From NCBI GenBank assembly GCA_020633435.1, contig JACKDP010000001.1, positions 517,359-581,358 on the forward strand: a DNA stretch of 64,000 bases, written 5' to 3'. Positions 13,393 to 18,482 of the stretch are shown here, piece by piece (position 1 is the stretch's first letter; every line of letters begins with the position of its first letter). This DNA comes from Myxococcales bacterium. GTDB lineage: Bacteria > Myxococcota_A > Bradymonadia > UBA7976 > UBA1532. The translations under genes were made by a program, and so were the position numbers. Below the pieces are notes generated by a model. It was given only the letters and a program-made list of their open reading frames with translations. It was not told the origin of the DNA and made no database searches.

Positions 13393-13652
13393 GGGGTCTT
13401 CTTCTCCGCACAGGTGTGGCGACAGTCGGCGACGATGGCCTCCCAGGCCCGCGCCTGCATCTGGGACTGCTCCAGGCAGTCTCGCACGCACGGGCTCTCC
13501 GCCGGATCCCCGGGCTGCGGCAGCGACGCGGTGACGGGCGCGGGCGGCGGCGCGGCGGGCGCCGCTTCCGTGGCGGGCGGCGCGCTCTGGCAGCCCGGCG
13601 AGGCCAGCAGGATCAGGGAAAAAGGCAGCGAAATCGGAGCGTTAGCGCGCAT
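13389..13652 (-). CDS. small Cys-containing secreted protein
   Basis: Signal-peptide-like N-terminus (LILLASPGC), four Cys; stop overlaps rubredoxin GTG (GTGA). Confidence 0.4.
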
Positions 13653-14631
13653 CGATCCGGAAGTCGGCCGGCACGTCGTCGAAGCCGGGTCGCTCCGTCC
13701 GCCGCTCCGGGACCGGCACCAGCGTGCCGGTCAGGCCGAGGGGCTCCGACAGGACCGACCGCAGCCACTCGCTCACGTCCCAGGTGACGAGCAGCTCGCG
13801 ATCGCCGGGCGTGACCTCGACGATGCCCGCGTAGAACTCGAAGGACCGCCGCGACCGCACGAAGAGGGCGTCGCCCTCCACCTCGGTCTCGCCGGGATCG
13901 AAGCCCACGGCGTCGGCCTTGCCGCGCGCGTCGTCGGGGCCGCCCTCGGAGGGGCTGGGCGCCGGCTCGGCGAAGGGCAGATCGGCCCCGCCCGCGCCGG
14001 GCAGCGGCAGGGCGGGCTCATCGGACGGGCTGGGCGCCGGCTCCGACGGGCTGGGCGCCGGCTCCGACGGGCTGGGCGCCGGCTCCGACGGGCTGGGCGC
14101 CGGCTCCGACGGGCTGGGCGCGGGCTCCGACGGGCTGGGCGCCGGCTCCAGCGGCAGATCGTCCGCCTTGCCGCGCTCGATGAGCTCGTCATCCTCGGGC
14201 GCTTGCAGCGCGCCGCCCACGGCGACGGAGACCCCGTCGGCGTCGGGCCGGATGCGCACGAGCACCTGGTAGGCCCCCGGGCCGGACAGCCGCAGCGCCC
14301 GCTCGGGCAGCTCCGTGCGATCCCCCTCCTCGTCGAAGACGTAGCGCACCGGCACGGCGTCGCCCGCCTGATCGAGGTCCTCCGGCAGCACGAAGATCTC
14401 GGCTTCGAAGGAGAGGCGCTCCACGTCGAGGGCGTCCGAGATCTCGCCGAGGCCCACGAGGCGCAGCCGGGGCCGCAGCTCCAGGGCGGTGGCGCTGCCC
14501 GCGCCGCCCGGTCCACCCACGGCGCCGACGCCCTCGCCACGCGGCGGCGCGTCGGCCTCTTCCCCGCAGGCTACGAGGGCCAGAGACGCGATCAGGATGG
14601 CCCCGAGGGCCTGCGTGAGGCTGCGCATCAT
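13642..14631 (-). CDS. lipoprotein with PAPSPSE tandem repeats
   Basis: In-frame tail of ORF 13642..17130 from MMRSLTQALGAILIASLALVAC (lipobox); six PAPSPSE repeats; ATG overlaps stop of the sigma-54 activator. Confidence 0.6.
   Translation of the reverse strand: MMRSLTQALGAILIASLALVACGEEADAPPRGEGVGAVGGPGGAGSATALELRPRLRLVGLGEISDALDVERLSFEAEIFVLPEDLDQAGDAVPVRYVFDEEGDRTELPERALRLSGPGAYQVLVRIRPDADGVSVAVGGALQAPEDDELIERGKADDLPLEPAPSPSEPAPSPSEPAPSPSEPAPSPSEPAPSPSEPAPSPSDEPALPLPGAGGADLPFAEPAPSPSEGGPDDARGKADAVGFDPGETEVEGDALFVRSRRSFEFYAGIVEVTPGDRELLVTWDVSEWLRSVLSEPLGLTGTLVPVPERRTERPGFDDVPADFRIDAR
14020..14150. repeat. 21-bp tandem repeat (about 6 copies) encoding the PAPSPSE repeats
   Basis: cggctccgacgggctgggcgc repeated head-to-tail. 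Confidence 0.8.
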
Positions 14632-17600: not shown

Positions 17601-18482
17601 CGGCATCCGCAGCACGGCCAGGGCGTCGACGAGCGGCCGCGCCTCCGCCGGCACCCGCTCCAGCCGCTCCTCCCAGACCTTCTCCACGTCCTGCGGCAGC
17701 CCCTCGACGAGCTGGCCGAGGGCCGCCGGCAGCCCGCCCGACGCCGCGAGGAGACGCTGAACCACTTGATCCGACTGGAGAAATGCCCGCACGCCCTCCG
17801 CGTCCAGCGGGGCCAGGGGCAGGTGGCGCACCGTCTCCGACGCCCGGGCCACCTCCAGCAGCGGCGGCAGCGCCGGCCCGTCGCGGCAGGTCAGCGCGAA
17901 GAGCCCACGGAAGGCCCGGCCCCGCACCTCGGCCTCCGGCGTCCACTCGAACGCCGGGTCCGTCAGCAGGTTCTCGATGAGGTAGCGGACGAGCCCCCGC
18001 GTGCCCGGGTGGGCCAGGTGCAGGTCGTGCAGACAGAGCAGCGGCGCCCGGACGGCCGAGACCTCCAGCAGCGCCAGGCGGATGGTCTCGCGGAAGAGCA
18101 GGACGCGCTCGGCGTCGGCCGGCGTCCCCGCGCCGTAGCCCGCCATCAGCTCCAGGGCCCGATCGAGGCGCGGCCGCGGGCGGCCCAGGTCGGCCAGGAG
18201 GACGGCGGCGCTGCCCAGCAGGTCGACGAGCGGGCCATGGGGGCGGTGGTCGGTGCGGTGGCAGGAGCCCTCCAGCACCGGGCGGCCGGCCTCTCGGAAG
18301 CCGCGCTTCAGCTCCGCGATCAGGCGGCTGCGCCCCACGCCGGCGGGGCCGCTCACCAGGACGGCTCGCCCCCCGTTGGCCGAGGCCGCCGTCAGATCCC
18401 GCAGGACCGCCAGCTCGGCCTCGCGGCCCACGAGCGTCGTGGACACCGGGCCGGGCAGGAGGGGAGCGTCGAGCGGCAGCAT
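14628..18482 (-). CDS. sigma-54-dependent activator with N-terminal P-loop NTPase domain and TPR-like region
   Basis: 1284 aa: Walker A (LVSGPAGVGRSRL), long Ala/Leu-rich TPR-like middle, sigma-54 module (GESGTGKE, ELFGHEKGSFTGA), C-terminal Fis-type HTH. Confidence 0.85.
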   Translation of the reverse strand: MLPLDAPLLPGPVSTTLVGREAELAVLRDLTAASANGGRAVLVSGPAGVGRSRLIAELKRGFREAGRPVLEGSCHRTDHRPHGPLVDLLGSAAVLLADLGRPRPRLDRALELMAGYGAGTPADAERVLLFRETIRLALLEVSAVRAPLLCLHDLHLAHPGTRGLVRYLIENLLTDPAFEWTPEAEVRGRAFRGLFALTCRDGPALPPLLEVARASETVRHLPLAPLDAEGVRAFLQSDQVVQRLLAASGGLPAALGQLVEGLPQDVEKVWEERLERVPAEARPLVDALAVLRMPATVEEAAEVAGAGEGGFAALQALVELGLLDRALQGGGARFCFRREEVRELYQRRMDPARSAALHRRAAELYAASARGSAAEVVARHAIAGGAPADAVPFALVAADHLRRACAPERAAALLEAVVDAAEGELAVEIRDRLAALYRESGAGQRERGALSWLAAHGPEAGRASVALRLAELEARLGDHAAAARIALEALASAPGPDLTRRLAAVVAEAAYQQGDLEAASERAAATLAADADAVDAPALSLRNTLGKVHLAREALDEAQALFTRNLEAARTLGDPVQEARAQTNLGVVSLQRGDQDAAHGMFEATRRLAAAHGDLRHLALSVENLGVLFHRQKDFPRALHFYHQSTAAFRQLGHRRQLATTALNLADLYLTLGDPPRARRLAHIAGDLIEQGSFRHLAAQQRMLEGDLAREAGDLDRAAEHYRGAEALLERGGSNQRQGPLWWAQAELALDRGEPQAALEAIARAQALPGSQADAFGARLRLTRGAALIALGEPEAALTDLGTAVARAEELGDREMAWQALARVADAHWARQDRAATLQTLAEAVETIEGVAAELPASLRTGYLAATGRRAVRDALRRVRAGIAPRGPGLAETSAPLRRSVGDYKPEWATRYADIIGRSPALFPVLNALDRVAGSDSMVLIRGESGTGKELVAAALHAGSGRCQGPFVKVNCSAFVETLLLSELFGHEKGSFTGAVAAKKGRFELADGGTLFLDEIGDISPNTQVALLRVLQEGTFERVGGTQMLAVDVRVICATHRDLEAMVEQGTFRADLYYRLRGVIIENPPLRDRREDIPLLVEHFLEKRSQSGRPRLRFSRPALASLLQHQWPGNVRELENVVRSVALFADGDRIGLAELAELGDIFRPPDEAALLALSEAEVAEVAEAPDVAPAVRAEAPSLGAAAAAPPGEEAVFDEAWLERMLAEEGSLSEVKRRIEFEAISRALRAADGNITRAAERLGMKRPRLSQIIHGSPALGELKREVSGE

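Follow-up and report, generated by a model that had tools for sequence, protein, structure and literature searches.

Introduction

Does a lipoprotein gene that directly follows the gene of a large sigma-54 activator encode a target of that activator, or its partner? The question arises in the window (the 64,000-nucleotide stretch of contig JACKDP010000001.1 analyzed here, from a Myxococcota metagenome-assembled genome, MAG, with the record title “Myxococcales bacterium”), where a minus-strand regulator of 1284 amino acids (aa) is followed by a lipoprotein with tandem EPAPSPS heptads. The whole stretch has ~75% GC. Tentatively, and with a probability of roughly 0.4, we read the pair as a sensor-plus-partner cassette of uncultured Myxococcota in which the lipoprotein would serve the regulator as input or partner and would not be one of its targets. 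This cassette reading is unproven; it draws on the architecture of the regulator, on the recurrence of the pairing with two unrelated lipoprotein families that share one kind of repeated motif, and on a promoter-like element that lies within the regulator's own codons.

A Sigma-54 Activator with a STAND-TPR Sensor at Its N Terminus

An initial annotation of this DNA had described the regulator as a multidomain sensor-activator with a tetratricopeptide repeat (TPR) region, a sigma-54 module and a Fis-type helix-turn-helix (HTH), and both Pfam and a confident AlphaFold2 (AF2) model with a STAND layout bear this out. The regulator and its parts are as follows.

14628..18482, minus strand: regulator coding sequence, 1284 aa, a STAND-TPR sensor with a sigma-54 enhancer-binding module (open reading frame, ORF; Pfam, NCBIfam and the seven-ortholog alignment A2)
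17817..18434, minus strand: STAND nucleotide-binding domain, residues ~17–222, with Walker A G45-PAGVG-R51-S and a Walker B-like LLCLH-D153 (AAA_16, AF2)
17439..17801, minus strand: STAND helical and winged-helix domains, residues ~228–348
15843..17432, minus strand: TPR sensor superhelix, residues ~351–880, ~13 helix pairs
15015..15740, minus strand: sigma-54 AAA+ domain and lid, residues 915–1156 (Sigma54_activat, AAA_lid_14)
14697..14789, minus strand: Fis-type HTH (HTH_8), residues 1232–1262 (Pfam E 1.6e-7)

Besides HTH_8, Pfam recognizes AAA_16 at residues 17–171 (E 1.9e-16), TPR_12 (E 3.8e-17), and Sigma54_activat at residues 915–1081 (E 4e-69, profile positions 1–167 of 168) followed by AAA_lid_14; TPR_MalT, at residues 458–824, stays below the Pfam cut-off (39.5 vs 45). 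NCBIfam models of the NifA, NtrC, PspF, and RtcR type match the central and C-terminal module only (residues ~905–1266), all below their equivalog cut-offs. The AF2 model of residues 1–900, built on 28 homologs (pLDDT 87.6, pTM 0.81), begins with a P-loop domain of five strands, continues through a helical domain and a winged helix (310–348), and ends in ~13 TPR pairs (351–880)—that is, the STAND order of P-loop nucleotide-binding domain, helical domain, winged helix and repeat sensor. Its top structural matches are the STAND-TPR protein 6mfv, MalT, and Avs3; by sequence, the relatives of these N-terminal 900 aa among solved structures are TPR proteins only.

The initial annotation had also called the N-terminal domain a P-loop NTPase. 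The STAND fold holds, and it is the activity that is in doubt, because the Walker A lysine is replaced by arginine in the window lineage: Arg occupies this position in the window, L001, and L002, Lys in L006, L007, L009, and L010, and Gln in L016. The first acidic position of Walker B is likewise His, Asp, or Glu among orthologs (His152 in the window), such that neither catalytic-type motif (GxxxxGK[ST], hhhhD[DE]) is present in the window protein, which reads GPAGVGR51S and LLCLH152-D153. In this lineage the P-loop probably binds nucleotide without hydrolyzing it, as a structural member of the STAND class.

The C-terminal part presents the domain set of the bacterial enhancer-binding proteins (bEBPs; NtrC/NifA/PspF, PF00158 plus PF02954): a PF00158-type AAA+ domain with Walker A (GESGTGK949E) and Walker B (D1014-E1015), a GAFTGA-type L1 loop (G990-SFTGA), a lid, and a C-terminal Fis-type HTH. 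The module is almost invariant in the seven-ortholog alignment (GESGTGKE, DEIGD, G[S/A]FTGA), and the GNITRAAExLGMKRPRLSQII stretch of the HTH is invariant. Within loop residues 990–995 only the second position varies, being Ser in 4/7 and Ala in 3/7 orthologs; we assume the Ser variant to be functional. No stretch of the regulator is hydrophobic enough to span a membrane (maximum Kyte–Doolittle value over 19 residues, 1.47), and it is thus expected to be cytoplasmic.

What sets this protein apart from other bEBPs is its N terminus, a ~900-aa STAND NTPase plus TPR region instead of a receiver, GAF, PAS, V4R, FHA, or CARF domain, and also that a search in cis turned up no cognate sigma-54 promoter (see below). 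It differs from MalT and other STAND transcription regulators (AAA_16, a TPR/SUPR sensor, and a DNA-binding effector), and from PH0952 (PDB 6mfv), in its effector—a second oligomerizing ATPase with a Fis HTH rather than a LuxR HTH—and further in the Lys-to-Arg change in Walker A of the window clade (Gln in L016) and in the sub-threshold TPR_MalT match. Control of the sigma-54 activators described so far lies, to our knowledge, with receiver, GAF, PAS, V4R, FHA, or CARF domains or with partner proteins, and no description of a STAND–sigma-54 fusion was found in the literature searched. A STAND switch of the MalT/NLR type placed before the AAA+ ring would add a control logic for sigma-54 activators, and since two oligomerizing P-loop modules share one chain, it bears on how assembly of the AAA+ ring is gated.

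The fusion is not peculiar to the window. A word-indexed search with the N-terminal 900 aa recovered ~28 clusters with the full AAA_16–TPR–sigma54–HTH_8 architecture, forming two identity groups (39–100% and 28–34%), and a HMMER scan of 1.84 billion representatives returned 132 proteins at E <= 1e-30, ~70 of them judged by eye to be collinear and full length (1190–1360 aa). All seven family members sampled (7/7) have the same architecture. By record names, the family belongs to Myxococcota (Myxococcales, Bradymonadia, Sandaracinaceae, and Nannocystaceae MAGs).

One Position, Two Lipoprotein Families, One Kind of Motif

A lipoprotein gene lies directly after the regulator gene in all close orthologous loci (the window, L001, L002–L005, L006, L007, L009, L010, and L013). 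At distant orthologs with ~30% N-terminal identity (L015, L016, L017, L022, L023, L047, L048, and the P0039 locus), the downstream gene, which overlaps the regulator gene or starts within ~20 nt of it, again encodes a lipoprotein, here of 126–190 aa, in which a domain with two Cys is followed by a C-terminal tail where a short motif recurs: DGTPLPA x2, ADPTPTPV x3, NSDPMP[LI] x2, QPNPQPD x2, or SSNPMPG x4. Between the large and the small lipoproteins we found no homology beyond the signal peptide (hhalign, probability 7%), and a common origin of the two families was rejected on this ground, the alignment covering the signal peptide only. Neither family matches any Pfam, NCBIfam, or PADLOC family.

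A profile search with the small lipoprotein gave 33 clusters, ~24 with SNPMPG x3–5 and ~9 with DPTPTP, mostly x2–4; a lipobox-like site is present in 31/33 members. Neither motif varies, although the spacers that separate the copies do so freely, as one expects of a short linear motif and not of a compositional linker. The association also holds in reverse: starting from the lipoproteins P0229 and P0242, a STAND–sigma-54 regulator was found immediately upstream. The feature that the lipoproteins keep family-wide is a tandem short motif, [D/E/N/Q]-P-x-P(-x-P) (hereafter PxP), with lineage-specific sequence and strain-variable copy number.

Flanking genes differ between loci, and some distant loci share MnmA, RNase III, cysteine desulfurase, and a TRAM/U5 methyltransferase; this housekeeping synteny indicates that the cassette is vertically inherited. 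A metagenome scan with the narrower alignment A4 added two new usable loci only. At L022, tandem regulator paralogs (5929–9729 and 10287–14051) stand on either side of one PxP-repeat lipoprotein gene (the QPNPQPD x2 form), an arrangement that could represent receptor duplication. In L001, the closest relative of the window, the reading frame of the lipoprotein gene appears to shift toward the 3' end (10845–10980), leaving the C-terminal FRIDAR segment in another frame, and the small downstream ORF is disrupted as well; either assembly error or decay would account for this.

The EPAPSPS Array: Copy Number Varies among Orthologs, the Motif Is Conserved

The window lipoprotein (H6706_02060 / MCB9544662.1, 100% identity) contains these features.

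13642..14631, minus strand: lipoprotein coding sequence, 329 aa (328 from the second ATG; ORF)
14566..14631, minus strand: lipoprotein signal peptide with lipobox LVAC and Cys22 (sequence, alignment A1)
14024..14149, minus strand: tandem array of six 21-bp units encoding EPAPSPS x6 (Tandem Repeats Finder, TRF: period 21, 6.0 copies, 98% matches, score 245)
~13948..13968, minus strand: isolated seventh EPAPSPS copy, as AEPAPSPSE (sequence, motif count)

The N terminus, MMRSLTQALGAILIASLALVAC22, matches the lipobox pattern [LVI][ASTVI][GAS]C, whereby acylation is predicted, and the lipobox cysteine is kept in at least 90% of 17 homologs. Searches with the protein found 16 homologs at 34–100% identity. 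The array is the sole near-perfect short-period array that TRF reports in the 64 kb. It had been noted as six perfect 21-bp repeats, which is true of the protein, where all six copies are identical, and not of the DNA: at 98% matches, four copies are identical, and copies 2 and 6 have a single synonymous change apiece. AF2 models the lipoprotein as a beta-sandwich interrupted by the disordered repeat region, which lies between ordered segments 50–142 and 255–328 and not between the lipid anchor and the domain.

Across the 17 homologs of the large lipoprotein, the motif is present in every protein, in 3–9 copies that are contiguous or split by acidic spacers, and in lineage variants (EPAPSPS, EPAPSPA, EPAPIPA, EPAPTAA, EPTPSPA, EPGPIAA, and EAGPIAARD) such that all copies within one protein are of one variant. 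The motif is thereby kept among homologs that are 40–89% identical. Its uniformity within proteins, together with the repeat units of the window and its nearest relative, L001, which differ from each other consistently at synonymous sites across copies, indicates concerted evolution. The L002 repeats are perfect as protein even though their DNA has drifted to 86% identity, which indicates purifying selection on the motif itself.

That copy number varies between strains, as the initial annotation had anticipated from repeat slippage, is seen in orthologous clusters defined at 90% identity: proteins of the P0004 cluster that are 96–100% identical elsewhere carry 5, 6, or 7 heptads, P0011 and P0217 show a difference of exactly one heptad, and P0009 and P0212 one of an 18-aa superunit—counts to be read knowing that repeats can be miscounted in short-read assemblies. 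For the window's own lineage a single genome is available, and the copy count of L001, its nearest relative, is likewise 6+1. Phase variation was considered and rejected: the 21-bp unit is in frame, variants differ by whole heptads, and the proteins are full length. The array variation is a length polymorphism.

A Promoter-Like Element Inside the HTH Codons

How would the lipoprotein gene be expressed? At the junction with the regulator gene (GGAGAATGATG), the regulator stop TGA lies at 14630–14628 and a lipoprotein ATG is possible at 14631 (ATGA, 4-nt overlap); the alternative ATG at 14628 overlaps by 1 nt (TGATG), is NCBI's choice, and has better Shine–Dalgarno spacing. The two ORFs, their coordinates, and the overlap of stop and start are thus as initially annotated, and the regulator start (context gagtccATG) is supported by orthologs, in which MLPLD is kept. 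The obligatory translational coupling drawn from this overlap did not survive comparison, as the overlap is confined to one subclade—the window and L001, with gaps of +7, +52, and +53 nt in L007, L006, and L002, respectively—and the lipoprotein gene has a promoter-like element of its own, embedded in the regulator.

14680..14708, minus strand: sigma-70-type promoter-like element ATGAAA-N17-GATAAT, inside regulator codons 1259–1268

The element falls within the HTH codons for LGMKRPRLSQIIH. Its hexamers match the sigma-70 consensus at 9/12 positions across a 17-nt spacer, and it is the single match in a consensus scan of 13000–19500 (6.5 kb), against 0.0 expected; the predicted transcription start is near 14673, ~42 nt upstream of the lipoprotein start. 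The codons that form it are exceptional. In a regulator gene with a third-position GC content (GC3) of 0.958, codons 1256–1267 contain the sole AAA (1/14 Lys codons), the sole ATA (1/28 Ile codons), and every AGA/AGG (3/139 Arg codons), and among 386 invariant degenerate columns of the seven-ortholog alignment, all 8 that have an A/T-ending codon in at least 5/7 sequences fall in residues 1260–1274. Both hexamers persist in eight lineages despite changes at wobble positions of the spacer, and distant orthologs encode the same GMKRPRLSQ with ordinary G/C-ending codons and lack the −10 element. The clustering of rare codons, the A/T-ending columns, the fixed hexamers, and the different coding of distant orthologs together argue that the element is not an accident of protein sequence.

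Judged from these alignments, the case for DNA-level selection on the stretch is strong, and most simply the element would be an internal promoter for the lipoprotein operon. We think it unlikely that the A/T-rich stretch instead serves as a rare-codon pause, an RNA element, or a binding site for the regulator or an IHF-like protein. Such roles would suit the conserved A/T-ending codons that go beyond the hexamers (CTT 1264, CAT 1269, CCT 1272, and CTT 1274), and they fit poorly with the hexamer match, spacer length, and chance expectation given above or with hexamers being fixed while the wobble positions between them vary. A translational pause seems not to be needed for folding, because distant orthologs encode the peptide with common codons. 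A known RNA element was rejected, there being no Rfam match at the gathering threshold or at E <= 1 and an RNAalifold consensus that is weak (−4.85 kcal/mol) with negligible covariation. A promoter within HTH codons would show cleanly, in a genome of 96% GC3, how one stretch of DNA can carry a protein code and a regulatory code at once.

No Sigma-54 Promoter at the Module

The search for sigma-54 promoters that the initial annotation had proposed was run with the criterion TGGCAC-N5-TTGCW, allowing up to 2 mismatches with GG and GC kept. No such promoter lies before the lipoprotein gene or any module gene in any of 8 loci, and so the proposal found no match near the module. One sequence, CTTGGCGAACTCAAGCGCG, was considered as a sigma-54 site and rejected for its wrong spacing (GG-N9-GC).

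The sole perfect site in the 64 kb (TGGCAC-N5-TTGCT; TGGCACACGGCTTGCT) is at 4695–4710 (+), 9.9 kb from the module. It lies 34 nt before a DAGK_cat/YegS-like lipid-kinase gene (4745–5779), which is followed by a DUF507 gene (5828–6415). The site is also perfect in L001, with a different spacer, and has no syntenic link to the module; its conservation suggests that sigma-54 is probably in use in the organism. A second possible site, TGGCACACCATCGGCT at 1770–1785 (+), has 2 mismatches and is followed by an unusually A/T-rich stretch.

What the Lipoprotein May Do for the Regulator

In the sensor-plus-partner cassette that we favor, the lipoprotein would be the regulator's cognate signal source, made constitutively or independently through the embedded promoter plus read-through from upstream. 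Its PxP units would reach the TPR sensor either as proteolyzed and re-imported peptides or as part of an unexported precursor, and their binding would turn the closed STAND monomer into an oligomer, as happens in MalT. Oligomerization would bring the sigma-54 AAA+ domains together into an active ring, which would then remodel sigma-54 RNA polymerase at promoters elsewhere in the genome.

Several observations weigh against this cassette. The regulator is expected to be cytoplasmic and the lipoprotein exported, so that contact needs an import route or an unexported precursor, and no Opp-type importer or dedicated protease is conserved near the module in the loci inspected; the binding, transport, and processing steps are ones that we infer only. 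Neither rpoN (within the window) nor sigma-54 targets of the regulator were found. Unlike small pheromone precursors, the window-family repeats sit in a 329-aa protein with a well-conserved folded domain, the tail of L048 is proline-rich without clean repeats, and proline-rich segments are common in envelope proteins generally. Finally, all sequences of the regulator family come from MAGs or metagenomes.

A published parallel to such a cassette is offered by the Rap-Phr systems, in which phr genes follow rap genes and in some cases are transcribed from a promoter inside rap (PMC5199041), and in which tandemly duplicated pheromones occur in phr (PMC11343458). As in these RRNPPA systems, the gene for a putative receptor is followed by that for a secreted product, with a predicted internal promoter and with repeated short units that differ by lineage. 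The likeness does not extend to the proteins: the window regulator has no apparent sequence homology to RRNPPA receptors and is of the STAND–sigma-54 class in a diderm myxobacterial host, and its “precursor” would be a 126–330-aa lipoprotein with a folded domain, proline-rich motifs, and no linked Opp importer. A full peptide-signaling version of the cassette—quorum- or proteolysis-sensing, with PxP units excised from a membrane-tethered polyprotein lipoprotein, re-imported, and bound by the cognate TPR domain to turn on a sigma-54 regulon—would, by this analogy, be possible, and we hold it improbable. Were it true, lineages with diverged motifs would represent distinct “pherotypes,” and the strength of the signal would be adjusted through the number of copies. 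Myxococcus A-signaling, which uses protease-generated peptides plus amino acids, involves the sigma-54 activator SasR and in this respect provides a precedent in the phylum for a link between peptides and a sigma-54 activator. More broadly, if the cassette model holds, peptide signaling through cytoplasmic TPR receptors would extend beyond Bacillota to Myxococcota, a phylum known for social behavior.

The main rival, short of even odds and still to be taken seriously, is an explanation confined to the envelope: the lipoprotein is co-expressed and gives no feedback, its repeats act in the periplasm or on the cell surface, where they offer an envelope partner multivalent docking sites, form a rigid polyproline-II spacer, or undergo modification of the O-glycosylation type, and the STAND-TPR sensor reads some other cytoplasmic ligand. 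The conserved beta-sandwich suggests a function of its own, and export, a separate sigma-70-like promoter, and the lack of a conserved importer or protease nearby all suit this explanation, as do copy-number changes in unit multiples, which are typical of surface-protein spacers. Proline-rich spacers of envelope proteins include the (EP)n/(KP)n region of TonB and the PS/PT repeats of the IgA1-hinge-like kind. Comparison with these, made from general knowledge, finds the same acidic Pro-X-Pro periodicity, predicted disorder or polyproline II, and in-frame copy variation; what distinguishes the window family is a motif that is exact, often with variable spacers between copies, and that tracks the neighboring regulator across two unrelated scaffolds. 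A role in the envelope alone thus leaves unexplained why two non-homologous lipoprotein families occupy one position beside orthologous regulators (~30–100% divergence), and why motifs are invariant with variable spacers when pure spacers usually drift. The simpler proposal of the initial annotation, in which the repeat is no more than a flexible linker and slippage during replication changes its length neutrally, accords with the near-identical 21-bp units, the 5/6/7-copy differences between strains, and the concerted evolution seen in the synonymous differences between the window and L001. We give it little chance: the motif is kept over deep divergence despite synonymous decay, is interleaved with variable spacers, and recurs as PxP in a non-homologous lipoprotein, and AF2 places the repeat between two ordered segments, so that “linker” is not the term we retain.

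The compartment problem of our preferred cassette would disappear if the TPR sensor bound the PxP units of the pre-lipoprotein before export, when it is still cytoplasmic, and so reported failure of Sec or lipoprotein export to a sigma-54 envelope-stress regulon. Tight operon linkage with translational coupling would supply such a precursor in stoichiometric amounts, and a comparative-genomic study is reported to have found sigma-54 regulons biased toward the cell exterior (PMC3162934). This use of an unexported lipoprotein as a sentinel is nonetheless the least credible of the explanations considered, being entirely inferential and leaving both the lineage-specific divergence of the motif and the retained folded domain unexplained. 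Its functional likeness would be to the sentinel lipoproteins NlpE and RcsF or to the PspF system; NlpE and RcsF are sensed in the envelope and not in the cytoplasm, which counts against it. A defense system was also considered and rejected, as PADLOC matches are to generic RtcR/PspF AAA+ HTH and TPR models only and the neighborhood is housekeeping and syntenic.

Neighboring Genes and Other Features of the Window

Regulator and lipoprotein are the first two of four minus-strand genes, each overlapping the next head to tail, the other two being as follows.

13389..13652, minus strand: small exported twin-CX3C protein, 87 aa, C55x3C59...C77x3C81 (ORF, sequence)
13228..13392, minus strand: rubredoxin, 54 aa, last gene of the apparent four-gene operon (Pfam Rubredoxin, E 4e-22)

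The ATG of the twin-CX3C gene overlaps the lipoprotein stop by 11 nt (ATGCGCGCTAA), and the GTG start of the rubredoxin gene overlaps the twin-CX3C stop (GTGA). The twin-CX3C protein (CVRDC...CRHTC) is reminiscent of disulfide-linked helical hairpins and belongs to no known family in Pfam, NCBIfam, or PADLOC. Its lipobox is atypical in the window (SPGC) and canonical in L001 and L007; a homolog comes after the lipoprotein in L001 (frameshifted), L002, and L007, and none is present there in L006, L009, L010, or L013. Rubredoxin was not seen at the corresponding position in the other loci inspected, and its gene was therefore probably recruited recently.

Divergent from the regulator, at 18600–19409 (+), lies the gene for a 269-aa protein with an N-terminal transmembrane helix and a C-terminal Cys-rich zinc ribbon (weak Prok-RING match); L001, L002, and L006 have a gene of similar size and orientation at the divergent position (matched by position), and in the distant orthologous loci the gene upstream of the regulator instead encodes an MshEN-domain protein. 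Recurring GGTAGCAC-like words occur between the regulator and the divergent gene.

Elsewhere in the window, a 138-bp x 7.8 array, 89% identical, at 53642–54711 encodes near-identical TPR_10/TPR_12 repeats within an ORF of 715 aa (53407–55554, −), and 90- and 156-bp tandem arrays at 32931–33595 encode repeated, Cys-rich Cu-binding_MopE motifs within an ORF of 838 aa (32647–35163, −). Over ~38000–58000 (~20 kb), GC content falls from ~75–79% to ~65–70%, and this may be a region of different origin.

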